From: an uncultured virus (IMG/VR IMGVR_UViG_3300031884_000004)
Taxonomy: Duplodnaviria > Heunggongvirae > Uroviricota > Caudoviricetes
Length of the DNA: 61,305 nt
Virus record (IMG/VR): IMGVR_UViG_3300031884_000004
Direction: 5' to 3' (one strand)
Positions 15,501 to 47,235 of the stretch are shown one piece after another. Each line of letters begins with the position of its first letter. Positions within the stretch are counted from its first letter, which is position 1. The notes under the pieces are model-generated. The model worked only from the letters and a program-made list of their open reading frames with translations. It made no database searches and was not told the DNA's origin. Position numbers and translations under genes: made by a program.

Positions 15501-18500
15501 ATTCTTTAATGATGACCTTATCGCCATCACCAAGCGGGCTAATGATAGTGAGCGAAGGGGCATCCGGACTTATTATATAATCTATGCCACTAGTAAGTTG
15601 TCGTTCAACTACTACACCAGCGACTGTTCTCAACACATAAACAAGAACGCCGCTATAGTTAGCAGTTTCAAAATTATAAACATTGCTTAATGGATAAACA
15701 GAAGTATCCAGTTGATTATTGAACGTGTACGTGTTGGTGCGGTACGGAGCCTTTGACGGTAACATGTCCGACCAAAAGAATGCGTTGATTTCGCTCTTTG
15801 CAGCAGTAATCTGGTCTAGTGCGCTATCCAGAATTTGCGACGGAGTGTATCGCTGAACGTAATCTGTGTTTTGTACCGTATATACTAGTAATTGTTTATA
15901 CTTTATATATTCACGGCTGTTAAACATCAATGCGTCAAACAAGTTGTGCTGCGTGTTTCGGAAAAAGGTTCCCGGCAGTACTAATGACGCAGAGTTTTGA
16001 ATTATCTCTGTACCATATGGTACTAAGTTACCGCAATCTCTAAAATTATTTGCGCCGAAAATTTCACCTGTCGTGTTTGGTGAATTAATAAAAATGTCTC
16101 TATACTGTGCACGGATATCACCAACATTGGCTGTAGTTAAATCAGCATTTAATGGATTATTATTTAAATTAATAGGAATGTCGTAGTAACCGATTTGGCT
16201 TACTTGATCACTCAATACTAATACTTGAACTACCGTGCTAGTTGTTGGTAGTGAACTGCTACTGTTAAATGTAATTGTGGTAGTATTGGTACCAACTACC
16301 GTAGCATATGATGTTGGTGCTTGATATACATTGTTGATGTATACCTTAACTCTCGGCCAACCAGTTTCTCCCGTTGCTAAAGCAGGCAATGCTGCAACGT
16401 CACACTGGAAACTTAATGTTGGATTTGTAGGATCAAAGTCAAAACTGAATAATTGATATTGCGTGCTATCAGCAATTGCGGTTTGCCAACCAAGCTGTCT
16501 TACATATGATGTACCTGATGTATAATTATATACGTAGCCAGTATTTACCTTTTGATTAATAGGATTATATCCAGACACATAATTAAATGTATCCAAATTC
16601 AGTGATACGTCGAAACTAATATCCCCTACGTTATCTATACCAGAATATGCGATTGGAAAGCCTAATATAGGGTCATTGACTCCGCTACCAACACTGTATG
16701 CGAAAAGTTTACACCCCTTGAACGAAGTACTTTGATAGACCGAAGAATCCCCAAAAGAAATACCGTTGGCATCAAAAACGTCAAACAGCGGTGGTTGGTT
16801 AACCGTAACCTTTTGTTGTGCCTGTATCCACTTTATACCATCATAATAGTAACTAGTGCCTTGGTGATAATAACCACGCTTAATTGCTAATTGTTCATCA
16901 GGGACAATATTTCCGTCTTCTGCTACCGTGAGTGTAATTACAGGTCTAGTATTAGGATCAATTACCGAGAAGTTTACGACATAGATTTTGTTTCTTACAG
17001 TAGAGCTAGAGTCAGCAGCAAATACGATTCTTGCTTCCGGAAACAAAGCATAGTTATCTAAAGTAGTGTCTGAACCCACAATAGACAAGTTTGAAGCAGA
17101 GGATATGTTTTTTGCGCCGGGCCATGAAACTGTTACAGTTAGCGTAGTAGTACCAGTAATGTCGGTAATTTGTGTATTATTAGGAAGAATGCTTGAAGAA
17201 TCTGCAACATACATTCCAATTTGGAATGTACCCGAAACGTTAGCAGCGTCTACACTAAAGGTAGTTGATGTTGCGGCGGTTACTCCTACAACCGACGCCG
17301 ATGCTGTAGTAAGTACTTCTGTATCTGGGTAATAATTGTAAGATCCTGCTACTGTTGACAATGCATCAGTGTTATGGGTATCGATAAAATCGATTCCTGC
17401 GGCGCCTACAGAACCCGAATTGTATAATTTTAGATTAGGATAAAACTCGATTATAGGGCGGACTGCTTTGTTTGCTTGTGTCGCGTAAGTAGTTGCGATA
17501 TTAGGGTCGTTATTGTATTTTGCAGTTGCGTTGATGACATCGATGTGGAACCAACGATTGCTTCTGGACCAAGCATTTTTATTGATTGCGTTTCTAGCAA
17601 TAGTAATATAGTCTTTATCTGTTGGAATAAAAAGGTCCGAATCGTAATTGCTAATGTCATATGGTGTAGAATCATATGGAATGTAATTACCATGTGTAAA
17701 ATCTTCAGTACAGACTAGAGAGCTTACTGGAACTAACTCAATTGCAGTTCCTACACCCTGTACATAGTATTGTCCCTGTAAATAACTTGTAGGAATAATG
17801 TCACCTTGAAAGTTAACTTTCAATCCATTAGTAAATACTACTCCACTAGATGACGTATAATTAGGGTTACCCAAGATTTCAGTCACAACATTAATAGTAT
17901 TTGTAGTATTGCTGTCAATGATTTTAATCACGCCGACAGAATCAGCAGATGTACCGTCTTGATAATATAGAACATCTAACGGAGCAGTGATAACAGGAAT
18001 TGGATTAATTACTCCGGTAGGTGAACGATAAAATGGTATATTGTTCCATTGAGTACCATATAATGGAGTAATTGTTTGATTTACAGGAATAGTACCATCT
18101 GGAACTAAACGAATAGTTGGGTTCTTTGGATCACCGATGTATTCAATCAAGTAATAGTATTCAAACACCGTTGATGCGACACTTTCTTCATATAGACCCT
18201 GATTGATATTGGCAACCATAGTACCTGATCCAGGAACCAAAGTTAACGGAGACGAAGCATCTAGAGTCAACGCGATAGTAAATGTACCTGAAGTAGGAAT
18301 ACTATGAACATAATAGACTTCCCCTGCAGTAACTCCACCGAATGTTGGGTTGTTAAAGGTTACAGTTTGACCGACTACTAATTGAGAGGTACTATCTGTA
18401 GTAAACGCAGAAGCATCACAGCTAGTTACATTTATAACGATTGGTGCGACGAGAACATCACTATTGATGTCCAGCGGTGTCTCGCTCAAGAAGGTCTCTG

Positions 18501-19440
18501 TGTTTCCCTTCTCTGCCGGAATACCATCATAATAGAACATGATGCGTAACCCTTCAAGCGCAGTCACGCCATCAATGTCATTAAGTCCTTGATATGTTAC
18601 GCCATCCGTGTCAGTAAATGTCTTTAAAACTGCTCCATTTACTTGGTCAAACAATTTAGTGCTGACTAGATCGACAGTGTTGTTACCTGGAAAAATATAT
18701 TGATCTTGTGCATTTTTTTGCGGAACAGTAAACGTAACAACACCTTGACTTGCGCCATTGTTGTCTACTCCGTATACTTGTCTAGTAGTAAGATTCGATT
18801 GGAATGGCGAATATCCTGAGGTACCCGGATCCGTCTGAATCCAAAACTGAGACGATTGATTTACAGCAAAAGTATAGGTTCCTCCGCGGATCAATCCAAG
18901 TGTAGGATTGATGCTACCGATAGGTTGTCCGACTAGAGCAATTTCATATCCATTAGGTAGTGATGTGACTGCATAATTTTCAGTAGAGTACACGGTTGCT
19001 GCTGAGATAGTAACAGCCGGCGGCCCGACTGGCAACCAGTAATATTCATTAAAGTTAATGAGCTTGTCGAGGTTAGTGAAGGAGTCCCATGAATAAAACT
19101 GACTTTTGAATAGACGACTGTTGTTATCCGTAATACTATCTTGCATTGCAATAGAGTCGATGATGCCTGGATACGAGATAAAGTCGTTTGCTACAGATTC
19201 GTTTGGCTTAGTAAAAACTACACCCGGATCTAACTGATAGTTCACCCGAGTTTTTGTTGGTTCAACTACATAATTGTCAGTTGCATTTACACCATATCCA
19301 AACTTGCTACCTACATAGCCTTGAATCTTCATCGTATTCGGTGGATTTACGATCTGATCTAGGGTCGCTGACAAAAATTCCGCGTTAGTTGAGGTTTGAA
19401 AAATCTCAGGAAGAAAAGTTATTGTCCGAATTCGGGCCAT
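547..19440 (-). CDS. giant virion structural protein, probable baseplate wedge/adsorption protein (6297 aa)
   Basis: Directly downstream of gp6. Contains FG-GAP-like repeats, Asp-box/BNR (SxDGxxW) repeats and about 15 copies of a GxxVxF...GG...YYV...FTIS beta-rich module. Late promoter motif at 19498-19505. Confidence 0.75.
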   Translation of the reverse strand: MARIRTITFLPEIFQTSTNAEFLSATLDQIVNPPNTMKIQGYVGSKFGYGVNATDNYVVEPTKTRVNYQLDPGVVFTKPNESVANDFISYPGIIDSIAMQDSITDNNSRLFKSQFYSWDSFTNLDKLINFNEYYWLPVGPPAVTISAATVYSTENYAVTSLPNGYEIALVGQPIGSINPTLGLIRGGTYTFAVNQSSQFWIQTDPGTSGYSPFQSNLTTRQVYGVDNNGASQGVVTFTVPQKNAQDQYIFPGNNTVDLVSTKLFDQVNGAVLKTFTDTDGVTYQGLNDIDGVTALEGLRIMFYYDGIPAEKGNTETFLSETPLDINSDVLVAPIVINVTSCDASAFTTDSTSQLVVGQTVTFNNPTFGGVTAGEVYYVHSIPTSGTFTIALTLDASSPLTLVPGSGTMVANINQGLYEESVASTVFEYYYLIEYIGDPKNPTIRLVPDGTIPVNQTITPLYGTQWNNIPFYRSPTGVINPIPVITAPLDVLYYQDGTSADSVGVIKIIDSNTTNTINVVTEILGNPNYTSSSGVVFTNGLKVNFQGDIIPTSYLQGQYYVQGVGTAIELVPVSSLVCTEDFTHGNYIPYDSTPYDISNYDSDLFIPTDKDYITIARNAINKNAWSRSNRWFHIDVINATAKYNNDPNIATTYATQANKAVRPIIEFYPNLKLYNSGSVGAAGIDFIDTHNTDALSTVAGSYNYYPDTEVLTTASASVVGVTAATSTTFSVDAANVSGTFQIGMYVADSSSILPNNTQITDITGTTTLTVTVSWPGAKNISSASNLSIVGSDTTLDNYALFPEARIVFAADSSSTVRNKIYVVNFSVIDPNTRPVITLTVAEDGNIVPDEQLAIKRGYYHQGTSYYYDGIKWIQAQQKVTVNQPPLFDVFDANGISFGDSSVYQSTSFKGCKLFAYSVGSGVNDPILGFPIAYSGIDNVGDISFDVSLNLDTFNYVSGYNPINQKVNTGYVYNYTSGTSYVRQLGWQTAIADSTQYQLFSFDFDPTNPTLSFQCDVAALPALATGETGWPRVKVYINNVYQAPTSYATVVGTNTTTITFNSSSSLPTTSTVVQVLVLSDQVSQIGYYDIPINLNNNPLNADLTTANVGDIRAQYRDIFINSPNTTGEIFGANNFRDCGNLVPYGTEIIQNSASLVLPGTFFRNTQHNLFDALMFNSREYIKYKQLLVYTVQNTDYVQRYTPSQILDSALDQITAAKSEINAFFWSDMLPSKAPYRTNTYTFNNQLDTSVYPLSNVYNFETANYSGVLVYVLRTVAGVVVERQLTSGIDYIISPDAPSLTIISPLGDGDKVIIKEYNQTYGSYIPNTPTKLGLYPSFYPEVVLDSDYTVPTYFIKGHDGSFTKLYGDYDETLGVLIDFRDQALLEFELRIYNNLKLSTTVPIERYEVVPGYFRSSTSTYSWNEFIQMYEPTFLNWIGQNRLDYKSQYYQKNNEFSYNYTNSGNKLDQAAIQQGYWRGVYEYFYDTTTPNETPWEMLGFANEPTWWADRYGPTPYTSDNGILWGDLEAGYIWNNGNPYTVPELARPGLSKIIPVDSNGDLLSPLIAIVGNYNPSTFQKDWVVGDDAPVELSYRRSSTWPFDLMRLFALTRPAEFFNLAVDLDNYKYNAEFNQYLVNDRSHLVPANIEIYGNGTAKTSYINWIVDYEKQQGVDATTNITTLLNNLDVRLVYRLAGYSDKTLLQFYVEKGSPNSNNATLLIPNESYSVLLYDNQPFDQIMFSGVVIQKNQGYWTVYGNSQTFAYFKTLKPINNGTYGSVDVLGTTVKYAKNYTDQVVLVPYGTKFYSTQGVVQFLMSYGAELESQGMLFNEVEQGIEVTWAQMAAEFLYWSMSGWEVGSLITLNPSATAINIDRPSAIVQPLTVQQTNFILNQNLYPIQLNDLCVERDDTLFHAHTLNQGDSMSYAQFNVSNFEHGIVFDNVTLFNDIIYNLTTGLRQNRIYARGVKTADWNGTVNAWGFILNQDNVLEWNGNLKYTKGVIVQYKNKYWTALKVIEPSATFNEQDWKLVNYNDIQKGMLSNASTRAYESTLYYDVYQANLEQDADLLAFSLIGYRPRDYLALVDLTDSTQVQVYQNLIKNKGTRNAVDAFQGATFPQGSISYDFYENWSILTKQYGGVLNENFVDFRINQTNLMGNPSIVSLTNGVYTVGSDQEVPLYNLFNYNTPPASPNVLSTLDTTVNSQLYPSAGYINVNDVKMSSYFFSGLPSAVDSTGAVVPINNFYVGEYFWLANFKNKWDVFRWTNIGQVIQVRNNTNGTATITFSSPHSLNKLDPMAIINFAQNVDGYYIVADVLNLYEVVINLSALNANQNSIQGRGLAFGFVSQRVASPAGIIPLASAENEFIKNTVWVDENTDGNWAVYRKSLNYAYQNQFEQADGGTFGSAVAYTSDMGYLIGDSGTGILYRYIYDSLAQAYLLKENKTGGTSFGSTIKYAQNLYAVSQPSGVSPAVTLYTLNHTVVTDRMLTYQTIAAPGGVTDWGSALAISGDTNWLYISDAQNNNVYVYRKQNIPLIAGYFVTGETYVITSLGSTDFTAIGAVDNKVGITFVATGAGAGTGTATQITYKQSTIISGSSLFSLGAGDGFGTALATSYDGSTLAVTAPFIDYSPTITNWGTTFVLQRTMQNFEAKQNSLPEQTTSFSLSWTPAAGATITASATSSVTNRITCSGSMTGFQINQPVVFAGSNFGSSNVSPNQVYYIHGISGSEISIKTSRSSTTPVNLTTAAGLSFSVYVQVDPLYVYLNGKLVTDDNYAVIGTSFIYYSSLIAGDILTVSDNQYFPAQQINSDYIDRTDIEFGYAVDMYKTGSTLLIGSPYEVDANDVEGAVYSYVNGGAEYGVVIGTNECNVTTNRTLLINGFAVNLSAGNAQSVANTINSSKIINVQAAATSDNKLIIQVINQNIAQINQKLTVYAYDSGTTLSELGINLYTKTQIIQSPHEQGASRFGSAIKINEFDSVIISAPVGTRYEGTFFDFTDDENLDNDTVFDNNATQFVDSYVNAGAVYMFDYIGLYNESLANPGAYVYAQSVNSKNIPYGQQPLYGTAIDFNENVVVVGSPNFYPVAVGGQVVVYNNATGVSDWSVYRNSAPIVDISKIQNTQIFSASTNQTLINLDYMDPLQGKLLGAARENLDFVSGTDPARYNSDLSTIIGSVWGAEHVGQLWFNTNNVRWMNYHQNDNVYNSKYWGAVFPGSDVAVYTWVASFVPPNSYPGPGAVYNPNLYVVSTVLNASNNAVPVYYFWVSNTNIIFEQTGKTLSDSVVASYISNPKGSGIAYMAPLLPNTFALYNSVDYFNANDSVFHIGFANGTTDDVAHQEYALIRENYQDDFLPGLPHGGTSAHTLAIQGGYTISETDVPYSLYAKLLDSLAGCDGAGAVVPNPWLPLAVQSGIRSRPNQSFFYDRYLAINNYLTYANTVLAQYPIAEIRPDATFLFQSGTYFNTADYWSYVNWWATGYSDSTKSSLQVPNYADLAALNVAVNTIVTVEQNGAGKFEVYRYDGYGVWTRIGLQNGTIAFDTSLWDYSSAKIGYGDNFFDTTPYDQYPSEETRYIVRALTEQIYISDLLIYRNTSLILLFDYIQSETTQSQNFLPWLNKTSLADVSHTIRELIPYEVYQTDNTAFLSGYINEVKPYHVVIKDFVFKYTGTDVYQGNITDFDLPATYNSSYQQYISPQLVYSNPNSQYEYLPTDSIWSTAPYTQWFQNHGVSITGQPNYNITVTTSYVSTSSTYIVVDNAHGFPINGTINIGNEIIGYSFVDRALNVLSGLVRGVNGTPIENHITGAQIYIDLPAALVLFGGRGYVEPPKVTAYIDTSIYPAPKTPAVLEAVMNLDSVLQINVIDPGEGYAVLPEIVIDPAEVIAFDNTAVNGTFHTIRLYAPNLQTGDAVLYKSGITASVGALANNQWYYINVLETVPTAIIALYTTYSDAINDKARVKIYPIGIGSDMTLSSGARASAITTALPIRENNTTIRFDRTTYGSQVQDWEAGAYYGSFFAGTLDNSSTTSSSSIGLESTEPPIDSILASAQGAVFEITDISNDQQLTWSSFIRYVSGTTASNHSITLIPQDNGGGQPNASGTTIGFYIGMPVKFQSTLSFGGLVSNQIYYVNTILSETEFTVSTTVGGPIFGVTDSVVGVYTMECFVGEVTNTAVMSINYPGILQVTATTATTNALTVPTSLVGTGGTLGFYTNLPVFFTEDVFGGIVANKTYYVTSVIDNQTFTMSATTNPVSTTAYSVDGSTDRVAVNDGTNFNINDIVVFTDMVIAGTSTTNFGGLVAGTFYYVSGVYLSSKEITLSATKNGAVLNLTTVVAASDTSAIMTNQKDTVALTTAVGSATMNVSLPISPGQINGQLFTIYETSGQYPNNIVSAGEVSSLISRSINATISAVNRIAVSASLGGTDFFYKNMPIRVTTNIGNLVAGTTYYIREYTGDGTNTVIEVTVTNTSSSGNVLSCGSTASLYIGMPIVFSGQSLGGIFVTETYYIQDIPSSTTFTLSLTVSGPAITLTNDNGVMTGAGDPFFTVSTTVNGSEFALSSDHTTVSTATQYVTGYTTFDLSYKLGGYSAVPTNAGSGFAVNNIITIPGTAVGGTSPANDITLEVNSVDALGGIINVIASGNVPSTSTKYYLKVISSNQLEVYSNPLLTVPVSGINFPFNGYTTTTVQSVSSNIITVNSTTGFNVNDAVVFTGNVSAGIVAGQTYYIVNNVNFTSNTLQISSTPGGTAITLSNASSLSYTMAKSGSYAFLPEPFYFNQSIVKFNNKVYICVISNNDKEFVIGKWEELDSGDRRLNAMDRVMGYYKPTVNMPGVDLTQLFDGVTYPNSIYLGNAFQPNQQFALDVVVQDQPFYPSQVNITAVEYHNNVYHAVANLPTYSALLTSADGITWAITQLANTDINVTNIVYNNGTYLISAANNATPILTSVDGLVWTVANTTEHSSQAAAYGNGCWISVGDNIVRSTDAITWNTVHTFDSIFEVELYGVSFVQTASFTGFVAVGNGLRYDYSTGVTQLVPTDIIITSADGITWTQVAPLTNKSLNSVVSNGTTIVALGENNVQYTSTDAINWFGNEALVTTFSSTNYIISTAPNAFTVNAAVQFSNSFSSINAGTTYYVKSIVSPTLVTISDTLGGSTKTLSADTVPINTLMYEYDANPSTVRDSVYVGGTFVSVGDNGLIKTSTDGYVWTLRSSGTTQNLNGITYDTDGITTFTVVGDNNTVLTSTDTIIWTDNSVFTVPPTVYDVKGADFPYGYGPEELVPGVVTDNLALTVVTRPGSNWDVTEYSHTGFNVVSLELAPTFGTQTVYTFAGAVQVPAQLTVQIIDPVTGLGTGITEGIDYTINWLNKTVILSTPLQFSPKKILRIDVYEVGNGDQLVQSSTDVNPIRVDDVTGFNEVYVDCNYSASVYQGSGVIRPGTSAIESQVLSTDSTTNRLTCTDISKFILNGPVTFLGVLFGGVVSETTYYVKSISTATDSIIISASIDPVTGLAGPAFDLVTASGDAMYVSIQSGNGQVWTTPIMYHNGNKLVLGATNIVIRTQSINNSLTTNSTFGFVPGTRITFSNTMFAGISPQTTYYVSSVINNNEFTISATNGGPVLPLPDTTGGAIFVTNDYAFGTQPNGIAAKIIFASDAYTTETDYIVYSLFGETTPQYGYAVPEIQYFTGTGSQTAFTLSNYVGENNPNNAVVEVNGVRKTVTTDYSINPNTNVITFTSAPVSNSSISVLTYNDTQQQYLTSQYGLTGTTVAPILSINTTLSPILATTTVTATSSTGNLITATSTAGFVVGQQIQFFGIAPLGGIKVDGTMYWVGSIISNTFTIKDQYGVAVPLSNASGTLLAEVGGISTTRVTTTIPHGFAENSLVRIDGTVGSIQLNNNIYYARVITDTVFDLYQSDVSGYTGYNPTLGATNYPVIGVSTYISGGYTWLTGSFNITTTTATATTSSNNTITVASTANLIVNTPVYFSENYTLNGTDLSFGGLVSGTEYYVSEIVNGTTFVVSDTYDGPSKTLTTSGPATINVTQWSQQYTDRIWVTVNGLRVPSSKLRINPANEVSILAEIQSTDKVIITSMIAHWTPEEMTYMNFVDKNGVASVYRSNTLTRTWLTESIQDLTTVIYVNDVNSVIQDVVFTATVPTVSVDGYYYIGLPADKRILTAVSVVNISTTPNQTISSNDYEVVLVDTAPTLKITPGSYISTGNTLTINVLEGDIIYVNGEAIRFNAVDIASNSLLGIQRGVNGTAKQSYIPAYTEVFGLLTSNKLDDVYYNQTWNSYTFNTIDGDPLQISTTTPALFLQTDIT

Positions 19441-33772: not shown

Positions 33773-35847
33773 GTACTGTACTAAAGAATATCACTCTCCG
33801 TAATTTTCTGTCTATTGGCGCAGTTTGTCAATCAGTAAACTTCGATAGCAAAGAACTTACACTGATCTTAGGTGAAAATCTAGATTTAGGTGGTGATGGC
33901 GCTCGTAATGGTACCGGAAAGACGACCCTTATTCAAGGTCTTAGTTACGTTCTGTTTGGTACTCCTATCAACAGTATTCGTAAAGACAATCTCATCAATC
34001 GAACCAATGCTAAGGGCATGATGGTCACTTTGGAATTCAGTTCTGGTGGAATTGAATACAAGATCGAAAGAGGTCGCAAACCAAACATTTTGCGTTTCTT
34101 TGTCAATAATGCGGCGGCCTCTACGGATGAAGACGCCGCCCAAGGCGAAAATAAAGAAACTCAGATTGCAATCGAGCGTGCCATCGGAATGTCCGCTGAC
34201 ATGTTCAAGCACATCGTTGCTCTTAACACCTACTCTGAGCCGTTTTTGGCATTAGGTTCTAACGAACAACGAAAGATCATTGAACAACTATTGGGCATAA
34301 CTCTGCTTTCCGAAAAAGCGGAGATAATCAAAGAAAAGCTCAAGGGCAACAAAGAACTCATTCAATTGGAAGAGTATAAGGTCAAAGCTATTGAGGAAGC
34401 TAACAAGCGTGTTCAGGAACAGCTTGACGGTCTTAAGCGCAGACAGCGCCTGTGGCAAGCCAAACATGACGACGATTTGGCTAGGTTAGCGCTTGATTAT
34501 GATGAACTCAGCAAAATTGATATCGAGGCTGAACTCCAAGCACACAAAGAGCTAACAACATACAATAGCAACAAGAAAAAGCAAGAGCAGTATGAAGCTG
34601 TATTGGCTCGGCAGATCGCCTGGAAGCAAAAGCGCGACAAAGATATTGCTGATTTACAAATTACCTATGACAAGTTGAGCCACATCGATATTGAAGCTGA
34701 GCTACAGGCTCATATTGATTTGGTAGAATACAATCGTAGAAAAATCGAACTAGACTCTGTAAATAAAACGATTGCCTCTTTAGAATCTACACTCAAAAAA
34801 GAACGTTTATCGGTTGAAAAACTGATAAGCGAGGTTAAGACTCTTGAGGAAAACAGATGTTATGCGTGTGGACAAGATTTCCATGATGACGGTCATGTTG
34901 AGGTCCTATCTAGCAAGCGTGCCTTATTGTCTACTGCACAATCTGATCTTGCCCAAACCCAAACTGAGTTAGAAAAAAATAAAAATTCTTTGTTTGTTTT
35001 GGGCGCGGTTCCTACTACTTATTACAAAACACAAACTGAGGCTATCAAGCATAGTTCAGAACTTGAGAACATTCAGAATCAAATTAACTCAAAGCAGGCA
35101 GAAACTGATCCATATGCTGAACAATTAGTGGAGCATTCTGGTGTGATTGTTGGTCCTGCGCCTATCACACACTATGATACTGAAGCCGAAGCGATTGAAC
35201 ATCGTAGCACAGTTGCCAACTTACTTCAGCAAATCGAAAACAAAGTAGCTGAAGCTGATCCATACAGTGAGCAAATTGATGATATGGAAAAGAAGGCTCT
35301 GCAAGTTATAAGTTTTGACAAAATAAATGAGCTTTCAAAATTAGGAGATCACTACAAGTTTCTAGTAGACCTTCTAACTAGTAAAGACTCGTTTGTTAGA
35401 AAGAAGATTATAGATCAAAATCTATCATATCTTAATGCTAGACTTACGAACTATCTAGACAAGATTGGCTTGCCGCATACAGTAGTGTTTAAGAATGATC
35501 TTTCGGTTGAAATTACTGAACTCGGACGTGAACTAGATTTTGATAATTTGTCACGTGGCGAGCGGAACCGATTGATATTAGGACTGTCGTTTGCGTTCAG
35601 AGACGTTTGGGAAAATCTATATCATCCCATCAATACCGTGTTCATTGACGAATTGATAGATTCTGGACTTGATACTATAGGTGTCGAGAACGCAATGGCA
35701 ATTCTTAAGGACCTGTCTAGAAGACGCGGCAAGTCAATCTGGTTAGTCTCTCACCGCGAAGAACTTGCGGGTCGAGTACCTAGCGTACTTAAGGTTGTGA
35801 AAGAGAATGGTTTTACAACCTATCGAAATGATGCTGAACAAGAATGA
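33769..35847 (+). CDS. gp46: recombination ATPase (Rad50/SbcC-like)
   Basis: Walker A NGTGKTT, zinc hook CYAC, signature LSRGE, Walker B VFIDELIDSGLD, SH switch. Confidence 0.93.
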   Translation: MSTVLKNITLRNFLSIGAVCQSVNFDSKELTLILGENLDLGGDGARNGTGKTTLIQGLSYVLFGTPINSIRKDNLINRTNAKGMMVTLEFSSGGIEYKIERGRKPNILRFFVNNAAASTDEDAAQGENKETQIAIERAIGMSADMFKHIVALNTYSEPFLALGSNEQRKIIEQLLGITLLSEKAEIIKEKLKGNKELIQLEEYKVKAIEEANKRVQEQLDGLKRRQRLWQAKHDDDLARLALDYDELSKIDIEAELQAHKELTTYNSNKKKQEQYEAVLARQIAWKQKRDKDIADLQITYDKLSHIDIEAELQAHIDLVEYNRRKIELDSVNKTIASLESTLKKERLSVEKLISEVKTLEENRCYACGQDFHDDGHVEVLSSKRALLSTAQSDLAQTQTELEKNKNSLFVLGAVPTTYYKTQTEAIKHSSELENIQNQINSKQAETDPYAEQLVEHSGVIVGPAPITHYDTEAEAIEHRSTVANLLQQIENKVAEADPYSEQIDDMEKKALQVISFDKINELSKLGDHYKFLVDLLTSKDSFVRKKIIDQNLSYLNARLTNYLDKIGLPHTVVFKNDLSVEITELGRELDFDNLSRGERNRLILGLSFAFRDVWENLYHPINTVFIDELIDSGLDTIGVENAMAILKDLSRRRGKSIWLVSHREELAGRVPSVLKVVKENGFTTYRNDAEQE

Positions 35848-35916
35848 TAAATAGATGTGAGTCGCGGGAGTACGAATCCCCACTCACTCTAATGCTAGAA
35901 GGAGCAATCAGCAATG
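35846..35916 (+). promoter_or_regulatory. late promoter plus conserved structured HEG leader, copy A
   Basis: GATAAATA-gat-GTGAGT-cgc-GGGA-gtacgaa-TCCC-c-ACTCAC-tctaatgcta-gaaggagcaatcagca-ATG. Confidence 0.8.
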
Positions 35917-36621
35917 AATATTTATCTATATAAAAAGACCCACAACATAACCGGTCTTAAATACCTAGGTAAAACAACAGCCAAAGACCCGCACAAATAT
36001 AAAGGCTCAGGTGACTATTGGAAAGATCATATTAAAACTCACGGATATGATGTTACGACTGAGATACTAGCAGAATGCAAAACAACTAAAGAATTAAAAG
36101 AGCGGGGATTGTATTATAGTAATTTATGGAACGTGGTTGAAGAAAAAGATGCCAACGGAAAGAAAACATGGGCTAATTTAAGACCAGAAACCAGTGACGG
36201 AGGAGGTAGATTACCGGGATTTAAGTTAACAGATTCTCACAAAGAAAACATAAGCATTGCCAAAACCGATGTTACTAACCCAAAGTTGAGTGAGCAGAGG
36301 AAAGGTTTCGGAAATCACATGTTTGGACAGAAGCGAGATGATATATCCGGAGATAACAATCCGATGAAAGACCCTGCAATAGCGGACCGTGTTAGAAGAT
36401 CCCATCTCGGTAAAAAACACACTGACGAGTCTAAACGAAAACGATCAGAAAAGCTTTCAGGCCACAACAATCCTATGTTCGGCAAAATCGGAGAACATAG
36501 TCCAAGGTATGGCAAAACATCTCCGCCCATGACGTGTGAACATTGCAGTAAAACCTGCGCTAGACACAACTTTGTGAAATATCACGGAGATAAGTGTAAA
36601 AATAAAAACAACCGTATATAG
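35914..36621 (+). CDS. GIY-YIG homing endonuclease with NUMOD3-like repeats and C-terminal zinc finger
   Basis: IYLYKKTHNITGLKYLGKT...YKGSG...WANL; HTDESKRKRSEKLSGHNNPMFGK; CEHC...HGDKC. Confidence 0.85.
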   Translation: MNIYLYKKTHNITGLKYLGKTTAKDPHKYKGSGDYWKDHIKTHGYDVTTEILAECKTTKELKERGLYYSNLWNVVEEKDANGKKTWANLRPETSDGGGRLPGFKLTDSHKENISIAKTDVTNPKLSEQRKGFGNHMFGQKRDDISGDNNPMKDPAIADRVRRSHLGKKHTDESKRKRSEKLSGHNNPMFGKIGEHSPRYGKTSPPMTCEHCSKTCARHNFVKYHGDKCKNKNNRI

Positions 36622-36635
36622 ACAATAAATATCAT

Positions 36636-37208
36636 ATGCCTTCTAAATCTAAAGCAAAAGGAAGTTCATTTGAGCGGGAGGTCGCGGCCTTCTTGTCAGC
36701 GTTGTATTCCGCTTCATTTGTGCGTGTTCCCAATTCAGGCGCGTATATCGGACGATCTAATTCTCATCGCAAAAACATACTTGATGCAAATCAAACTAAG
36801 TCTTTCAAAGGAGACATAATTGCGCCTGATGATTGGGTAAATTTTAACTCTGAATGCAAGAGCTATGCTACTTTCCCTTTTCATCTTTTGCTCTCAGGTG
36901 ATTGCAAAGTGGTCGAGTCTTGGTTAGATCAGTTAATGGAAGTATCTGACCCTGACAATCTAAACATATTGATGTTTAAGATTAATAGAAAAGGACGCTT
37001 TGTCGCCGTTCAAACAAAGTACACGTGGGTTACTGACAACTTCATTCTTTACACCTCAGCTAAACACGGCGATTGGGTGTTCATAGAATTCGATAACTTT
37101 TTTAAACTCAACAAAGACCTTCTTAAAGCATATTCAGGCTCATCTACAAATAATTCTTCTGGCTCACCCGACACCACGTCCGACAACATTATCTCCATTC
37201 AAATCTAA
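36636..37208 (+). CDS. Holliday junction resolvase-like PD-(D/E)xK nuclease
   Basis: SKSKAKGSSFEREVA...RVPNSGA...GDII...SECK. Confidence 0.75.
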   Translation: MPSKSKAKGSSFEREVAAFLSALYSASFVRVPNSGAYIGRSNSHRKNILDANQTKSFKGDIIAPDDWVNFNSECKSYATFPFHLLLSGDCKVVESWLDQLMEVSDPDNLNILMFKINRKGRFVAVQTKYTWVTDNFILYTSAKHGDWVFIEFDNFFKLNKDLLKAYSGSSTNNSSGSPDTTSDNIISIQI

Positions 37209-37235
37209 AAAATCACAGAACCCTATATTGGCGTT

Positions 37236-37760
37236 TGGTCGGGGTACCTCGACTCTCCTTGAGCGACATGCGAGATATCATGGCGCGGATCTGGAGTCTG
37301 CTGAGCATCATGGAATCCATGATGTTCGGGAATACCGACAGGGCTCTCGCTTGGTAGAATGCGAACCCTGAATGAGTCTACACGTCTATTCTGTCTTGAA
37401 GGTGTAGAACATGCGTTGCAGAAGAACTTCCCCTAAGGGGTGGTCAGCTTCACTACAGCCCTAGCAAACTTTACAGTGCAACCGGTAGCGTCAATCAGCA
37501 ACAAACGCTAGATTGACGGGGGATAGACAGCAACGGTGGAAGGTCCATGGCATGGCCCCTAATACCATTGGTAGTGCTGAATAGCACTACCATGGCTTCC
37601 AATCCGGCATGTATAACTCCTAGAGAGTATTCTTTAAGACAATTAAAAAGAATATATCGAACGTAGTGAGATATAAGTTGTCCGTAAGGACAACTCTAAA
37701 AGATACTCTAACCTAAGTAGATATGGAAATAGAGAGAATTAAATGAATAGTTCTCTCTAT
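37236..37760 (+). ncRNA. candidate large structured non-coding RNA (or structured DNA element), family unassigned
   Basis: No ORF of 60 aa or more; lies between convergent genes; about 10 helices, a GNRA-capped stem and a long-range pseudoknot (see findings). Confidence 0.55.
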
Positions 37761-37765
37761 GTCGG

Positions 37766-38002
37766 TTAGAAGAATGGTAGCTGGGATTTCTTTGTAGTTT
37801 CTAGGTTGCTATCAATTATATCGTTGATAGCCTTTCTTTCCTCTATAGACATGTTGAGGATGTCCTCATATGAAGCGCCACCGCGCATGTACCATGCCAT
37901 AGTAAGTGCAGATTTGCGTATACCCGCTACGTCTTTTTCATACTCATCTAGTAGCTTCTGAATCTCTTCGGGTTTAGAGCGTAGAAGCTTTAGCCGAAAA
38001 AA
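37766..38002 (-). CDS. gp51-like ORF, probably the -1 frameshift extension of the gp26-like gene
   Basis: FFRLKLLRSKPEEIQKLLDEYEKDVAGIRKSALTMAWYMRGGASYEDILNMSIEERKAINDIIDSNLETTKKSQLPFF*. The frame opens exactly at T TTT TTC (38002-37996). Confidence 0.7.
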   Translation of the reverse strand, partial: FFRLKLLRSKPEEIQKLLDEYEKDVAGIRKSALTMAWYMRGGASYEDILNMSIEERKAINDIIDSNLETTKKSQLPFF

Positions 38003-38811
38003 TCAGAAGGGTTCAATGAGAAATCTTGCTCGTATTCGTGTCCGCAGCTATCACATTTTATCTTTAATGGCTGTGGTGTGGAACTTTTCTTAAGTTCTGT
38101 AGCGTAGTCTCTAATAGAAGTAAAAGTATTTCGATCACAGTTCTTGAGAAAATCTAGAATAAACTCATTTTCTTGTACCTTGATTTCTGGTGTTTCTATA
38201 TATTCAATACCTAAACTTAATAATTTCATAGTCAACAACGTTACCCGTTCAAGTGCATCACCACCTATTTTATTTTTTTCCTCTTCTGACATATTTTCCA
38301 TAGAGGCAAACAGTTTTTGCATTTCAAACTGAGCTATAGAAGCTTCATTCATTTCTTTATAAACCAACGGTCTAAACTTAATTTTTAGATCACCTACTTC
38401 AAATTCCTTATTGTAATCCCCTGCCTTAAGGGTAGACAATATACCAACTAAGCTGATGCCGTACGGAGAAAGTTCGTTACATTTTGGACAGATCGAATCT
38501 ATGTCCAATTGATCACCGTTGGAAGCAGACTTAATTGCGATGAGGATAGCATCTAAATCACTGCTACTAATAGCCCATGGATCTTTGATGTCAGGTACAC
38601 AGCTTTTTATTAATTCAGCAATTGCAGTACCGTTAAACAACGAATCCGGAGTTCTGGCTGTAATTTCATCAATAGCAGTCATCGGATAGATTGGTAATTC
38701 GCCGGTTACTGGAATGTTTATCACGTCCTCTGAGTAGCTTGTGGTTCCTGAGGGGAGTTTTAGGTAAACAGCAGGTCTTCTGAAGTACTGTCTTAGCGGG
38801 TTATTGTTCAT
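37990..38811 (-). CDS. gp26: baseplate hub/tail assembly chaperone, T4 gp26-like
   Basis: NPLRQYFRRPAVYLKLPS...PMTAIDEI...DLDAILIAIKSAS...CPKC...CDSCGHE...NPSDFFG. Confidence 0.75.
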   Translation of the reverse strand: MNNNPLRQYFRRPAVYLKLPSGTTSYSEDVINIPVTGELPIYPMTAIDEITARTPDSLFNGTAIAELIKSCVPDIKDPWAISSSDLDAILIAIKSASNGDQLDIDSICPKCNELSPYGISLVGILSTLKAGDYNKEFEVGDLKIKFRPLVYKEMNEASIAQFEMQKLFASMENMSEEEKNKIGGDALERVTLLTMKLLSLGIEYIETPEIKVQENEFILDFLKNCDRNTFTSIRDYATELKKSSTPQPLKIKCDSCGHEYEQDFSLNPSDFFG

Positions 38812-42121: not shown

Positions 42122-45100
42122 ATGTCTGGATACAAGAAGAAATTTCTAAACAAGAGTGGTGTTTCGAGTCCTATCTCTGGTGCGAGCAGTAATGCCGGAG
42201 CATGGAATGGGTCGCCTGGACAAAACGGTATGCCAACTGGTGGTTGGAACAATACTGAATTTGGATACAAAAACTATCAAAGTAGACTACCGGAAGTCTA
42301 CACTGGTCACCCCAACAGAATCGAACGATACAATCAATACGAAATGATGGACGTTGATGCTGAAATCAACGCTTGTTTGGACATCATAGCAGAGTTCTCT
42401 ACACAGCGAAATGAACATAACAAGACACCGTTTGCGTTTGAATTCAAAGGAGAACCTACGCCACGTGAAGTAGAATTGCTAGGTAAGCAGCTACAACAGT
42501 GGTGCAAGCTAAATGAATTCGACGTGAGAATGTTTAAGATTTTCAGAAACGTTGTCAAGTATGGTGACCAAGTATTTGTTCGTGACCCAGAAAACTTTAA
42601 GCTATACTGGGTTGATATGGTTAAGGTCATTAAGGTTATCGTCAACGAATCTGAGGGCAAGAAGCCGGAACAGTATGTCATCAAAGACATCAATATCAAT
42701 CTACAAAACTTATCAGTAGCACAGAAAACCAATACTGACTTTGCTGCGAACCCAGCAACTGGTTTAGGTGGTAGTGGCGGCGGAACTAACACCCCGTACA
42801 CTGTTCCGGCAATGCCATATAATACGACTGGAAGTCGTTTTACATTAGGTCAGAGTGAATCAGCAGTAGACAGTAAGCATATTGTACACTTGTCCTTAAC
42901 TGAAGGATTAGATAGATTTTGGCCTTTTGGTCAATCTATACTGGAAAACATCTTTAAGGTCTATAAGCAAAAAGAACTACTAGAAGATGCGGTTCTTATC
43001 TATCGTGTGCAGCGTGCACCTGAACGTAGAATGTTTAAGATCGATGTTGGTAACATGCCAAGTCACTTAGCAATGGCATTTGTTGAGCGAGTAAAGAACG
43101 AAATTCACCAGCGTAGAATTCCCTCACCGTACGGTGGACAGTCGATTGTGGACGCCTCTTATAACCCTTTATGTTTGGATTTAGAAACTAAAATTCCACT
43201 TTTAGATGGAAGAACCTTGTCTTTACAAGAAATAATCACTGAATTTGAAGCTGGAAAAGAAAATTGGGCGTATAGCTGCGATCCAGTAACCGGTAGAGTA
43301 GTACCTGGAGTAATTAATTGGGCTGGCATTACTAGAAAAAACACAGAAGTAATTAAACTTACTTTTGATAACGGCAAAACATTAGTTTGTACACCAGACC
43401 ATAAAATACCTGTGTTTGATAAAGGCTTTGTAGAAGCACAACATTTAACTGAAAATGATAGTCTAATTGCGTTCAATACTCAAAATAAAAATATTTCAGG
43501 CGGAAAAACCAATGATTACCAGCAGGTATGGGACCATGAGAGTAAAAAATGGATTTGGACTCATCGGATGGTCGGGGATTTCTTTAGAAATTTAGGAAAG
43601 CACCAAGAATTTAATTATCTAACTGAATACGCAATGGCACCTAGAACAGTTATTCATCATAAAGATAACAATAGATTTAATAACGAACCCAAAAACCTAG
43701 TATTCATGAACAAAACAGATCATGTTTTATATCATGCTGCACAGAAAAAAGAATTTTGGGAAACGATGTCAGATGAATATAGAAAGCAGATAACGTCTAA
43801 AACTTCGGCCACTCTAAAAGAAAATTGGGAAAATATGACCGAAGAAGAACGTCTAATCGGTCTTTGGAACATTAGAGCAGCGCAACAAAAAGCTGTATGG
43901 GCTAGAAAGAACGATCCTATAACTGCGGCTAAATATAAATCTAGTATGCAACAAGTGCGCAAAGAGTACTTTGATCGTAATCCAGTTGGTTTGGAAAAAG
44001 TTCGTGCAAATTGTGAAAAGAGAGTTAAAATTAAAAATCAACCACTGATCTTGACATTTGATATGGTACAACGAGTAGCAGAACAGGTTAAGCAAGGTAA
44101 TAAAAATAAAAATAAGGTACTGGAGTGGTGTGATAATGATAGCACCTTATTGAGTTTGGTTAAGAATGCTAATTCATCACCATTGGATTATAAAAATGCA
44201 CAATGTAAAATAGACTTTAATAAGTTTGGGTACAGTAAGTTAGACAGACTTCTTTCTAAATTTGGATATAAAAATTGGAAACATTTTGTAAAAGAAATTG
44301 ACAATTTTAACCATAGAATTGTAAAGATTGAAAAGGTAAGTAACAGAGACACTGGAACTATAACTATTGATGGGCGTCATCAATGGCATGATTATCATAC
44401 GTTTGCTATCGACGCTGGTATATTTGTAAAGAACTCAATGAACGAAGACTATTTCTTCCCTGTAACAGCAGAAGGACGTGGATCATCTGTTGAAGTTCTG
44501 CCGGGCGGACAAAATCTAGGTGAAATCGATGACTTGAAGTACTTCAATAATCGTCTTGCCCGTGGACTTCGTGTTCCGTCTTCATACTTACCAACTGGTC
44601 CCGACGACAATACTACACCCATGAACGATGGTCGTGTCGGCACAGCGATGATTCAAGAATTTAGATTCAATCAATACTGTGAAAGACTTCAGAATTATAT
44701 CTGCTTGAAGCTGGATGAAGAGTTTAAGTTATTCTTGCGTTGGAGAGGCTTCAATATTGATACTAGTCTTTTCCAACTAACTTTTAATCCTCCGCAAAAC
44801 TTTGCAGCCTACCGTCAGAGTGAGTTAGATAATGCACGAGTATCAGTGTTCTCTGCTATGGATGCTATTCCATACATGTCAAAGCGCTTCAACCTTGAAA
44901 GATTCTTAGGTCTTTCAGAAGAAGAAATCAAGAAGAACGAAAAGCTCTGGGAAGAAGAAAACAGAGAAGAAGTCACTAGCGAACCACAGGGTGCTGATCT
45001 TAGAAACATAGGTGTATCCAGCGGAGACTTTGATGCTGATATGAATACTGCGGATCAGATTGAGAATTCCGAACAGGAAGGTGAAGCACCGGAAACTGCT

Positions 45101-45181
45101 GGGCCAGTTTCAGGCGGCGATGTAGCAGCAGAACCATCAGCAATGGGCGGACCTGGAGCAACTCCGGGCGGCGGCTTCTAA
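42122..45181 (+). CDS. gp20: portal protein, T4 gp20-like, intein-containing (about 598 aa after splicing)
   Basis: LEDAVLIYRVQRAPERRMFKIDVGNMP and SMNEDYFFP...GRGSSVEVLPGGQNLGEIDDLKYF. Confidence 0.93.
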   Translation: MSGYKKKFLNKSGVSSPISGASSNAGAWNGSPGQNGMPTGGWNNTEFGYKNYQSRLPEVYTGHPNRIERYNQYEMMDVDAEINACLDIIAEFSTQRNEHNKTPFAFEFKGEPTPREVELLGKQLQQWCKLNEFDVRMFKIFRNVVKYGDQVFVRDPENFKLYWVDMVKVIKVIVNESEGKKPEQYVIKDININLQNLSVAQKTNTDFAANPATGLGGSGGGTNTPYTVPAMPYNTTGSRFTLGQSESAVDSKHIVHLSLTEGLDRFWPFGQSILENIFKVYKQKELLEDAVLIYRVQRAPERRMFKIDVGNMPSHLAMAFVERVKNEIHQRRIPSPYGGQSIVDASYNPLCLDLETKIPLLDGRTLSLQEIITEFEAGKENWAYSCDPVTGRVVPGVINWAGITRKNTEVIKLTFDNGKTLVCTPDHKIPVFDKGFVEAQHLTENDSLIAFNTQNKNISGGKTNDYQQVWDHESKKWIWTHRMVGDFFRNLGKHQEFNYLTEYAMAPRTVIHHKDNNRFNNEPKNLVFMNKTDHVLYHAAQKKEFWETMSDEYRKQITSKTSATLKENWENMTEEERLIGLWNIRAAQQKAVWARKNDPITAAKYKSSMQQVRKEYFDRNPVGLEKVRANCEKRVKIKNQPLILTFDMVQRVAEQVKQGNKNKNKVLEWCDNDSTLLSLVKNANSSPLDYKNAQCKIDFNKFGYSKLDRLLSKFGYKNWKHFVKEIDNFNHRIVKIEKVSNRDTGTITIDGRHQWHDYHTFAIDAGIFVKNSMNEDYFFPVTAEGRGSSVEVLPGGQNLGEIDDLKYFNNRLARGLRVPSSYLPTGPDDNTTPMNDGRVGTAMIQEFRFNQYCERLQNYICLKLDEEFKLFLRWRGFNIDTSLFQLTFNPPQNFAAYRQSELDNARVSVFSAMDAIPYMSKRFNLERFLGLSEEEIKKNEKLWEEENREEVTSEPQGADLRNIGVSSGDFDADMNTADQIENSEQEGEAPETAGPVSGGDVAAEPSAMGGPGATPGGGF
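43172..44434 (+). mobile_element. intein (421 aa) with HNH endonuclease in the portal
   Basis: YNPL|CLDLETKIPLLDG...CTPDH (block B)...VIHHKDNNRFNNEPKNL (HNH)...TFAIDAGIFVKN|SMNEDY. Excision restores YNPLSMNEDYFFP. Confidence 0.92.
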
Positions 45182-46409: not shown

Positions 46410-47045
46410 TCAATCTCGTATTACTATCCAACCTTTAACCGATTTATGTTTACCACTTATTAACCAACTTATGTTCCCTTGATACTTTGATAAATCATGT
46501 TTGATCATGAAATCTTTTGCTGTTAAAATTTCTATTTCACCAGTTTTTACGTGTTTCCATTTATATACAGGTTGATTAACTTTATCTACAAAAGCAAGTG
46601 ACCTGTTTTGTTTCAAGAAATGATGAGTTCCGTTTTCTACTCGTTTTTTTCCTCTGAGACTTGCGGCTTCTTTGTCTAAGAAATGATGAGTTCCGTTTTT
46701 TACCCTGTCCGACGCATGTGAACTACCATCTGCCCTTTTGATCAAGTTGTGGGTATTATTCTGTATTCTGGTTAAGTTCTGTAGCCTATTCAAATCGGAT
46801 AGTTTTTCAGGTGAAACTTTTTGTTTTTTACCTAGTAAAAAACAAGCACCGTAGTCACCTTGAGAATAATGAATATCATAATGTTCTTGAATAGTTACAC
46901 ACTTCAAGTTTATCGGGTCATTATTTGAATGATCACCGTCTATGTGATGGATTTCATATGATCGATCATTCTCTTCTTTTGGAATAGGTCCGTTGTGTTG
47001 TTCGTAGATTCTACGGTATTTGGTAGTGCCGCAATAAATACACAT
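46410..47045 (-). CDS. HNH homing endonuclease
   Basis: YRRIYEQHNGPIP...YEIHHIDGDHSNNDPINLKCVTIQEHYDIH; RVxNGTHHFL repeats; C-terminal HTH-like domain. Confidence 0.88.
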   Translation of the reverse strand: MCIYCGTTKYRRIYEQHNGPIPKEENDRSYEIHHIDGDHSNNDPINLKCVTIQEHYDIHYSQGDYGACFLLGKKQKVSPEKLSDLNRLQNLTRIQNNTHNLIKRADGSSHASDRVKNGTHHFLDKEAASLRGKKRVENGTHHFLKQNRSLAFVDKVNQPVYKWKHVKTGEIEILTAKDFMIKHDLSKYQGNISWLISGKHKSVKGWIVIRD

Positions 47046-47113
47046 GCTGATTGCTCCTTATAGCATTAGAGTAGTTGGGTGTTAGCGCACCGTGAACTAC
47101 ATCTTTATTTATC
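47043..47113 (-). promoter_or_regulatory. late promoter plus conserved structured HEG leader, copy C
   Basis: GATAAATA-aagat-GTAGTT-cac-GGTG-cgctaa-CACC-c-AACTAC-tctaatgcta-taaggagcaatcagc-ATG. Confidence 0.8.
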
Positions 47114-47235
47114 TTTCTCCATATTTATTTTGTATAGCACCGCCAAAAACGCAAAAAAGACTACTTAATACGGTGTTTTTTGTCTCACTGCATAAGTATA
47201 ATATACAAAGCCATTTCTATTCAGGAGACAATTTA

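Follow-up and report, generated by a model that had tools for sequence, protein, structure and literature searches.

A probable new family of large structured RNAs behind a resolvase-like nuclease gene of uncultured freshwater T4-like jumbo phages

What a gene-dense phage genome keeps in more than half a kilobase of DNA between two convergent genes is the question raised by a gap at positions 37209-37765 of the DNA analyzed here, a 61,305-nt stretch (the window) of the uncultured virus IMGVR_UViG_3300031884_000004 (Caudoviricetes), whose IMG/VR record, to which the window belongs, measures 181 kb and is rated 52% complete. A first-pass annotation of the window had proposed that an unassigned large plus-strand phage non-coding RNA (ncRNA) in the size class of ROOL and GOLLD resides there. 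Our comparison with homologous loci agrees with this proposal, since the element is conserved with covariation, folds better than shuffled sequences and matches no known family, and we are highly confident that positions 37237-37695 (+) specify a real structured RNA of a new family. The explanation as a whole, in which this new structured RNA of ~460 nt would be made late and act in trans as a docking particle, we consider somewhat better than an even bet, a judgement that blends the high confidence in the RNA with a much lower one in the docking.

The gap exists as described on its 5' side, where the nuclease gene on the plus strand stops at 37208. Its far boundary is at 37766 and not at the stop of the baseplate hub gene (37990), because a conserved 78-codon open reading frame (ORF) in the -1 frame continues past the hub gene. 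The sequence between the nuclease stop and the end of this extension ORF measures 557 nt.

Fold of a conserved RNA

The heavy base pairing that had been read from the gap was borne out by its folding energy, which on the plus strand is -190.2 kcal/mol for the 557 nt compared with -151.7 +/- 6.0 kcal/mol for 100 dinucleotide shuffles, none of which folds as well (z = -6.4). A similar value was obtained for the minus strand (z = -6.1, with 0 of 100 shuffles as good); since both strands fold well, the folding energy demonstrates structure and not the strand that carries it. A search guided by the hub protein yielded 26 IMG/VR loci, five of which belong to the same phage and the rest of which share 51-75% hub identity. 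In the relatives that offer enough sequence, the order of hub, gap and nuclease is preserved and the nucleotide identity of the gap amounts to 65-76%, compared with just 51-64% for the hub protein. In addition, the family was collected in IMG/VR via one invariant 20-mer of the gap, which gave at least 120 loci, and an nhmmer profile of the gap found the element in 116 of the 120 listed loci. Among the listed matches are 96 full-length copies, of which 84 are distinct, in 51 clusters below 93% identity. The main alignment (A2) contains 42 sequences, namely the window and 41 of the 51 cluster representatives, with nine truncated loci and one locus of the window's own phage (L043) left out; unless stated otherwise, the values given below refer to this alignment. 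The mean pairwise identity of its core columns is 68.7%, compared with ~40-66% amino acid identity of the flanking proteins.

RNAalifold applied to 14 sequences returned 89 pairs, 35 of them with compensatory changes, and a curated model on the 42 sequences comprises 99 pairs in 18 helices. In this model 94.2% of the cells are standard pairs versus 81.1% in column shuffles (reached by 0 of 500), changes on both sides occur in 60 of the 99 pairs, and the covariation score is 0.399 compared with 0.048-0.071 when the 3' partners are slid by 1-3 columns. The compensatory changes across homologues that define a conserved structured RNA were thus found above the level of the controls. The parts of the RNA are as follows.

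37237..37695 (+): whole conserved RNA, P1 to P13, ~459 nt
37237..37329 (+): 5' domain, P1-P4
37237-37254 (+): P1 hairpin
37255-62 with 37290-96 (+): P2, CUCC..GA / UC.GGAG, enclosing P3
37263-69 with 37280-86 (+): P3 hairpin
37301-37329 (+): P4 hairpin, variable
37333..37487 (+): core multi-helix junction, P5-P9
37333-37 with 37483-87 (+): P5
37339-43 with 37366-70 (+): P6
37347-49 with 37362-64 (+): P7
37372-85 with 37401-12 (+): P8
37391-37396 with 37525-37530 (+): pseudoknot PK1, CTGTCT in the P8 loop with AGACAG
37415-20 with 37477-82 (+): P9, enclosing a variable hairpin, P9a, and an invariant strand, CACUACAG..UUACAG
37459-37462 with 37519-37522 (+): pseudoknot PK2, CCCT with GGGG
37489-99 with 37507-18 (+): P10 hairpin, followed by the 3' strands of PK2 and PK1
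37565..37595 (+): P11, 13-bp hairpin with a nearly invariant stem (GGUAGUGC/GCACUACC) and a variable loop
37612..37652 (+): A-rich linker whose length and sequence differ among copies
37653-75 (+): P12 hairpin with a tandem G.A motif, C-GA-AC..GU-GA-G
37676-95 (+): P13, terminal terminator-like hairpin, followed by a U-rich run

Several helices named in the first-pass annotation reappear in the curated model with support from the 42 homologues: GCGACATG/CATGGCGC corresponds to P3, CAGGG..TCGC/GCGA.CCCTG to P6/P7, TCTACAC/GTGTAGA to P8, CGTCAATC/GATTGACG to P10, GGTAGTGCT/AGCACTACC to P11 and AGTTGTCC/GGACAACT to P13. The proposed hairpin at 37301-37329 is P4, which varies in length and sequence and yet folds in 36 of the 42 sequences at -3 kcal/mol or better; likewise, the variable P9a folds in 32 of the 42. 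Other proposed pairings were not supported. The long-range helix GTCGG/CCGAC is paired in only 52% of cells, GGTCG being part of a local hairpin and UACCG pairing with CGGUA at 37483-37487, and CGTTGC/GCAACG with its 3' strand at 37530 is paired in 71% with double changes in 0 of 6 pairs, the true partner being GCAAC at 37478-37482 (100% paired). The outer helix GGAAG/CTTCC is paired in 61% of cells. The outer pairing CCATGG/CCATGG, in contrast, may exist, with 84% of its cells paired but no double change. A further candidate, the pairing of GGUAGUG with an upstream CACUACA, was rejected as no compensating change accompanies it in the two sequences in which GGUAGUG varies.

In the 5' domain (helices 1-4) 81-99.6% of the cells are paired, and double changes occur in 13 of 19 pairs; a CCUCC that resembles an anti-Shine-Dalgarno sequence is itself paired and covaries (CUCU/AGAG, CUUC/GAAG). 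Pairing is 94-100% in helices 5-8 and 10 of the core, and 10 of the 11 pairs of P10 (helix 12) show double changes. The idea that the loop of P8 forms a pseudoknot with a downstream segment held for both partners, and only the register had to be shifted, from GTCTATTC/GGATAGAC (61% paired) to CTGTCT/AGACAG (99.2%, with double changes in five of the six pairs). This pseudoknot, PK1, surfaced in a covariation scan of all column pairs that was blind to structure, and its 3' strand lies 130 nt downstream. PK2 is paired in 92.9% of cells, and its outermost pair occurs as UA (21), CG (13), AU (5) and UG (2). Since the 12-nt strand 37519-37530 pairs both with the P8 loop and with a strand of the P9 junction, the RNA contains a double pseudoknot around the junction of P5, P6/P7, P8 and P9. 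Moreover, the alignment shows dozens of invariant unpaired nucleotides, many of them sited in junctions.

In the 3' part, P11 is paired in 95.4% of cells and changes mostly to G-U, unlike the other stems, which covary freely. The inner pair of P12 is AU in 27 sequences and GC in 15, and P13 is paired in 97.6% of cells with double changes in seven of its eight pairs. A last hairpin that had been counted as part of the element, ATAGAGAGAATT/AGTTCTCTCTAT (37729-37760), falls beyond the conserved RNA and was seen in none of the 13 relatives compared.

Twin units around P11

P11 is flanked by two short units of 6-9 nt that are identical within a phage and differ between phages.

37549..37554 (+): twin unit A, GGCATG in the window, within a small hairpin loop on the 5' side of P11
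37606..37611 (+): twin unit B, GGCATG in the window, single-stranded, 57 nt downstream of unit A

Across the family the two units are spaced 50-67 nt apart (median 56). Unit A is mostly unpaired, lying in a hairpin loop of the local fold, in 30 of 34 sequences, and unit B is mostly unstructured. About 10 variants were distinguished by eye, and a count gave 14 distinct shared strings, some of them nested; those recognized by eye are the following.

GGCAAU: most phages
GGCAUG: the window and L069
GGUAAU: L076
GAUAAU: L107
AGUAAU: L037
GCAAGUA: L048
CUGCAUGU: L070
CAGCAU: L074
AGCAG: L063
GGCAG: L034

A G/U position a few bases upstream also changes in parallel. The string shared by A and B averages 5.21 nt within a phage, and permuting the B segments among phages lowers this to 4.50 +/- 0.11 nt, with 0 of 2000 permutations reaching the observed value. 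Because this covariation is parallel and not complementary, the units do not pair with each other. Co-evolving twin units beside an invariant hairpin represent an unusual signature, which points to a specific interaction, and P11 together with the two identical single-stranded units might dock one common partner, which would be either a dimeric protein or a complementary sequence present twice. That they serve as the docking site of a single co-evolving partner is a proposal that we put forward tentatively, and we would sooner doubt it than rely on it.

Terminal repeats of this kind also recall the templates of reverse transcriptases (RT) of the retron, DRT or DGR type. This candidate was rejected: the RVT_1 domain (PF00078) occurs in none of six records, three of which are rated 100% complete, and an RT-template role is thus unlikely.

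The compact, doubly pseudoknotted core with its many invariant unpaired junction nucleotides could alternatively belong to a ribozyme that cleaves or processes itself, for example at the twin units, whose two identical sites spaced 50-67 nt apart would then free a P11 piece of ~56 nt. We judge this improbable, since no Rfam ribozyme family matches, the element is far larger than known self-cleaving classes, and the sequence data are silent on catalysis.

Locus, reading strand and transcription

The gene content of the window is that of a T4-like jumbo myovirus, as judged from ORF calls with Pfam and PHROG matches. Among the encoded proteins are a late sigma factor, SbcCD of the gp47/gp46 type and a lysozyme-domain protein of 1060 aa, and the immediate neighbors of the RNA are these.

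36636..37208 (+): PD-(D/E)XK resolvase-like nuclease gene, 190 aa, directly 5' of the RNA on the same strand
37766..38002 (-): 78-codon ORF in the -1 frame of the hub gene (the extension ORF), entered at the slippery run T_TTT_TTC (38002-37996)
37990..38811 (-): baseplate hub gene of the T4 gp26/51 type, convergent with the RNA (Pfam T4_baseplate, 3e-18; PHROG 150)

The nuclease matches Pfam PDDEXK_15 at 4.6e-25 and PHROG 244, a RusA-like resolvase, and its homologues in PA5oct, Phosso and Campylobacter phages, found by tblastn, are labelled Holliday junction resolvase or D14(-like). Among the 78 listed loci with flanks, 74 have a PDDEXK match on the 5' side of the RNA, and the remaining four stop at a contig edge. 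The extension ORF and hub follow 3' of the RNA in 73 of the 78, and the other five comprise three cut by the contig end, L084, which carries an inserted SGNH-like gene, and L078. The RNA is present once in the window's record and once in each of 10 related records, three of which are rated complete. In two relatives (L020:4047-4781 and L021:4055-4801) an extra gene of 244-248 aa, on the hub strand, with a GDS(H) motif and likeness to SGNH/GDSL hydrolases by eye only, is inserted between the hub extension and the RNA; being on the hub side, it leaves the RNA beside the nuclease gene.

The phages closest to the window among cultured ones, as judged by the hub protein, are Atu_ph07, Phosso, PA5oct and Rak2-like phages, with identities of just 31-34%. 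No match to the gap was found in cultured phages by blastn in distant mode, none in the hub loci of Atu_ph07 and PA5oct with the nhmmer family profile, and no significant one in the hub loci of Atu_ph07, PA5oct, Phosso, Ecwhy_1 and XbC2 with a covariance model of the P5-P9 part (R1, 93 positions), the best score being an insignificant 12.5 bits (E 0.07) in the Phosso gap. Likewise, two exact-pattern scans of bacterial and archaeal species-representative genomes gave 0 matches. The 20 public runs that contain the phage DNA are all DNA metagenomes, none RNA, from lakes or fresh water. As far as the collected sequences reach, the RNA family thus appears to be that of one clade of uncultured freshwater T4-like jumbo phages.

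The constant neighborhood could make the adjacent enzyme a partner, the RNA then being a cofactor, guide or decoy of the PD-(D/E)XK nuclease that arises from one transcript with it and whose four-way core or twin units would engage the dimeric enzyme. The adjacency holds in every listed locus with enough flank and survives insertions, namely that of a GIY-YIG gene on the upstream side in the window and that of the SGNH-like gene on the downstream side in L020 and L021. In addition, the nuclease family is annotated as Holliday junction resolvase; such resolvases cut two like strands of identical sequence, a symmetry that two identical units would fit. In the new nuclease-RNA pair so conceived, the core would bind the dimeric enzyme, and the units, identical and fast-evolving, would either address or gate its paired cuts on two identical strands or restrain the enzyme until late infection by mimicking a junction. 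On the other hand, no such RNA follows the nuclease homologues of PA5oct, Phosso and Campylobacter phages, 6-9 nt would not give a guide enough specificity, and synteny in one clade is weak evidence. We therefore regard a role as partner of the nuclease as a rather poor prospect, and the same holds for the specific pair just described.

The strand on which the RNA is read can be deduced from the pairs themselves. The curated pairs contain 189 G-U cells versus 32 A-C cells, in line with the earlier argument from G-U pairs, and the alifold energy is -162.8 on the plus strand versus -152.0 on the reverse complement; the G-U excess and the better plus-strand energy together indicate an RNA read from the plus strand, which is the strand of the nuclease gene. 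The same G-U excess in covarying helices speaks for selection at the level of RNA and of one strand, and P11, too, tolerates G-U. This bears on the replication or packaging role that had been offered as an alternative in the first-pass annotation, and which could take the form of an origin or primer RNA of the ColE1 RNA II or T4 ori R-loop type, or of a DNA site for recombination or packaging centred on the P11 palindrome. In such an origin the A-rich linker would be the DNA unwinding element and the twin units iteron-like sites. The size and multi-hairpin build, which resemble ColE1 RNA II, the AT-rich variable stretch after the core and the direct repeats around a conserved inverted repeat would suit this role. 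Besides the strand bias, however, no turning point of the cumulative GC skew is specific to 37 kb, and the sole promoter nearby is a late one, in contrast to the early firing of T4-type origins. The alternative thus gained no support, and we consider it very unlikely.

Likewise, a missed protein gene in an unusual code, or a low-complexity artefact, has next to no probability. Short ORFs of 35-47 aa do occur in the gap of the window, but the 42 copies share no conserved reading frame in the RNA. Per copy, the longest run free of stops measures 62 aa in the median and attains 75 aa in only eight of the 42, in differing frames and strands, and the indels in the alignment are not multiples of three. 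The helices covary, and large neighbors, among them an ORF of 6297 aa, are open under table 11. By these data the RNA is non-coding.

The ends of the RNA are suggested by its neighbors. In relatives the nuclease stop lies 3-50 nt ahead of P1, and in L020 and L021 the inserted gene on the opposite strand ends just past P13, from which we take the RNA to extend from P1 to P13. The motif most enriched upstream of ORFs in the window's record is GATAAATA, which was found upstream of 29 of 155 ORFs versus 1.4 expected, and in a complete relative it precedes 52 of 305 versus 2.9 expected; it is of the T4 late-promoter type. One motif of this type, CAATAAATA, precedes the nuclease gene and ends 5 nt before the ATG. 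By eye, a late-promoter-like motif (GATAAGTA or CAATAAATA) is seen ~5-7 nt before the nuclease ATG in the window (36622-36638) and in at least eight of 19 relatives. The position of the motif so near the ATG suggests that the message is leaderless or nearly so, or that the true start lies elsewhere. A sigma-70 scan gave nothing within the RNA. With a late motif before the nuclease gene and none before P1, the RNA would probably be the 3' part of a late nuclease transcript.

Such a position is also what a cis-acting 3'-untranslated region (3'-UTR) would require, one that shields the late resolvase transcript against 3' exonucleases, terminates it and insulates the convergent late operons against read-through and antisense RNA, with no role in trans. 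The start of the RNA 3-50 nt past the resolvase stop, its place exactly between the convergent genes, its end in a hairpin with a U-rich run and the negative outcome of the search for a promoter of its own are all consistent with this function. Protection or termination, however, needs a hairpin and not ~18 helices, let alone two covarying pseudoknots, dozens of invariant unpaired nucleotides and twin co-evolving units, and cultured relatives with the same gene pair do without this RNA. A purely cis-acting element is thus an unlikely explanation, though among the alternatives it is the one to which we give most weight.

In the explanation that we prefer, the RNA would be transcribed late together with the resolvase message whose 3' part it forms, from the GATAAATA-type promoter to P13, and would act in trans as a folded particle. 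Its many invariant unpaired nucleotides, its pair of pseudoknots and a P11 of invariant sequence favor such a particle over a mere transcript end. Support falls from the late synthesis with the nuclease message through the folded particle to the docking by P11 and the twin units.

Several points weigh against this explanation. The shuffle and permutation tests ignore the relatedness of the sequences and overstate significance, the nested helices were counted on the same alignment that yielded them, and one block is invariant by construction, because the 42 sequences were ascertained through it. No canonical late promoter directly precedes P1, and a candidate promoter of the RNA's own, ATAAAAAT, which stands before P1 in some relatives, was rejected as it is not among the motifs enriched upstream of ORFs. 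A simple terminator scan, whose criterion is a G+C-rich hairpin with at least five U, does not call P13, a conserved and covarying hairpin with an A/U-rich stem, behind which the sequence is rich in UCU/UUU. Both ends of the RNA, its timing and even its transcription are inferred. The synteny within one clade may reflect a mere lack of rearrangement and is no proof of a link with the nuclease. Finally, no complementary partner of the twin units was found inside the RNA, and none consistently placed in the 0.9-kb flanks. A search of six phage records (four of them fragments) with exact 6-7-mers found no co-varying partner site, its matches being confined to the locus of the RNA and to two chance hits in conserved coding DNA, so that the docking idea has the parallel covariation as its one argument.

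Apart from the RNA, the locus and its surroundings showed further features. The end of the hub gene reads GAT TTT TTC GGC TAA; it is precisely at TTT TTT that the -1 frame opens, which runs for 78 codons and has no ATG, GTG or TTG before 37900. The 10-mer GATTTTTTCG is invariant, and the -1 ORF has 78 codons, in 15 of 15 relatives. Atu_ph07 and PA5oct have the same -1-frame arrangement, and the annotation of Phosso, Ecwhy_1 and XbC2 treats the hub extension as a small gene of its own, which abuts or overlaps the stop codon of the hub gene. The arrangement is a candidate for a programmed -1 frameshift that would yield a long form of the hub or chaperone. Just behind the stop of the extension ORF lies a hairpin specific to this phage, which is part of the minimum free energy structure of both strands and is a possible terminator of the hub operon.

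37729..37760 (no strand assigned): phage-specific hairpin

Two unrelated homing endonuclease genes, a GIY-YIG/NUMOD3 gene (35914-36621) and an HNH gene (46410-47045), have very similar leaders at 35843-35913 (+) and 47046-47116 (-), each with the GATAAATA motif, a hairpin and then the ribosome-binding site CTCTAATGCTA.AAGGAGCAATCAGCA before the ATG. The T4-type portal protein (1019 aa, 42122-45181, +) is split by an intein that bears an endonuclease domain of the HNH type (Pfam Portal_T4, Intein_splicing and HNH_3), and the 6297-aa ORF at 547-19440 (-) runs with no interruption under table 11. In PA5oct (L149:5026-6538) and Phosso (L151:6233-7246), 1-1.5 kb with tiny or no annotated ORFs lie just upstream of the resolvase gene. 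Cultured Rak2-like phages have an unannotated gap of ~800 nt from the hub extension to an endonuclease VII/resolvase gene (L152:3547-4386 in Ecwhy_1, L153:3541-4308 in XbC2). About 480 nt of it are 68-76% conserved among phages of Klebsiella, Salmonella, Erwinia, Serratia, Cronobacter, Pectobacterium, Yersinia and Xanthomonas. This sequence recurs at 4-5 places per genome, its fold has a z of only -2.8, it matches no Rfam family and it bears no likeness to the lake-phage RNA at 37237-37695.

Comparison with known RNAs

To our knowledge, few classes of bacterial or phage RNA exceed 400 nt with a conserved intricate fold, among them rRNAs, RNase P, tmRNA, group I/II introns, OLE, GOLLD, ROOL and HEARO, and every solved large class that we know of brought unexpected biology. 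The RNA described here strengthens the case that jumbo phages have their own repertoire of large RNAs, and its more than 100 natural variants, very strong covariation, two pseudoknots and fixed slot make the family apt for study. The covariance-model check against Rfam that had been advised was run: Rfam 15 gave no match at gathering scores across the whole window, and in 37100-37900 at E <= 10 as well as in 12 diverse family members at E <= 5 there was only scattered noise. A search of the literature found no description of this RNA. In a survey of RNAs in IMG/VR (Fremin et al. 2023; PMC10690425) the candidates average 67 nt, and four strings of the RNA are absent from its searchable supplements; files 1, 2 and 4, which lie outside that search, may list sub-motifs. 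Taken together, these comparisons leave us in little doubt that the RNA is new, its newness being at the level of the RNA family.

Neither RNase P RNA, tmRNA nor tRNA is represented, as had been stated before: no Rfam model of these matches, and ARAGORN finds 0 tRNA or tmRNA genes in the window. A resemblance of GGAAUACCG / ACAGAGCAACCGGUA to the P4 region of RNase P was discarded, as no model score stands behind it and the helix topology is nested and not crossed. A suspected likeness to 16S rRNA was also dropped, since the alignment to E. coli rrsH scores 27 versus 21.6 +/- 2.25 for shuffles with a maximum of 31, the relative L083 scores 19, and Rfam shows no small-subunit match. No Rfam intron of group I or II matches at E <= 10, and the element lies between convergent stop codons. 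It resembles the group I introns of T4-like phages in being several hundred nt long and pseudoknotted, in a genome full of homing endonucleases with an intein besides. It differs from them in that it is not inside a gene and its helix order departs from the P3-P7 plan.

ColE1 RNA II, a structured transcript of ~500 nt with an AT-rich stretch downstream, depends on its fold. Compared with it and with T4 origin R-loop transcripts, the phage RNA has a late context, no origin signal in the skew and no apparent homology, and its pseudoknotted core and P11 are without counterpart in either. The RNAs of type III toxin-antitoxin systems (ToxI), which lie beside a nuclease gene, consist of tandem 36-nt direct repeats, are pseudoknotted and bind protein, are similar in adjoining a nuclease gene and in combining pseudoknots with short direct repeats at a fixed spacing. 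In our case, by contrast, only 6-9 nt are repeated, and only twice, the RNA is downstream of the gene, the nuclease is of another family, and the setting is a block of structural and recombination genes of a phage and no defence island.

GOLLD and ROOL are often carried by phages and prophages, are linked to tRNAs and are without a known biochemical job. The phage RNA is like them a large (over 400 nt), ornate, multi-helix ncRNA. It differs from both in its lack of a sequence or structure match and in its fixed slot, which is behind a resolvase gene and not next to tRNAs, of which the window has none. For GOLLD (RF02032), whose gathering score is 150 bits, the score was 14.6 bits (E 0.2) and limited to 37569-37792, with no match in the 12 other family members at E <= 5. 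ROOL (RF03087) gave none at its gathering score in the window, at E <= 10 in 37100-37900 or at E <= 5 in the 12 members. Cryo-electron microscopy structures of GOLLD and of a second, Rumen-named RNA are the subject of a report that calls them naturally ornate RNA-only complexes (10.1101/2024.12.08.627333).

HEARO or omega RNA, the partner of IscB or TnpB, was likewise without an Rfam match, and the gene adjacent here is PDDEXK_15. The phage RNA has no long variable guide segment, only the two units of 6-9 nt, and no transposon context. HEARO was long an orphan, a large structured RNA beside a nuclease gene in the same locus, which proved to be the RNA partner of IscB, and it is in this respect, as a large orphan structured RNA always beside a nuclease gene, that the RNA of the lake phages resembles it.

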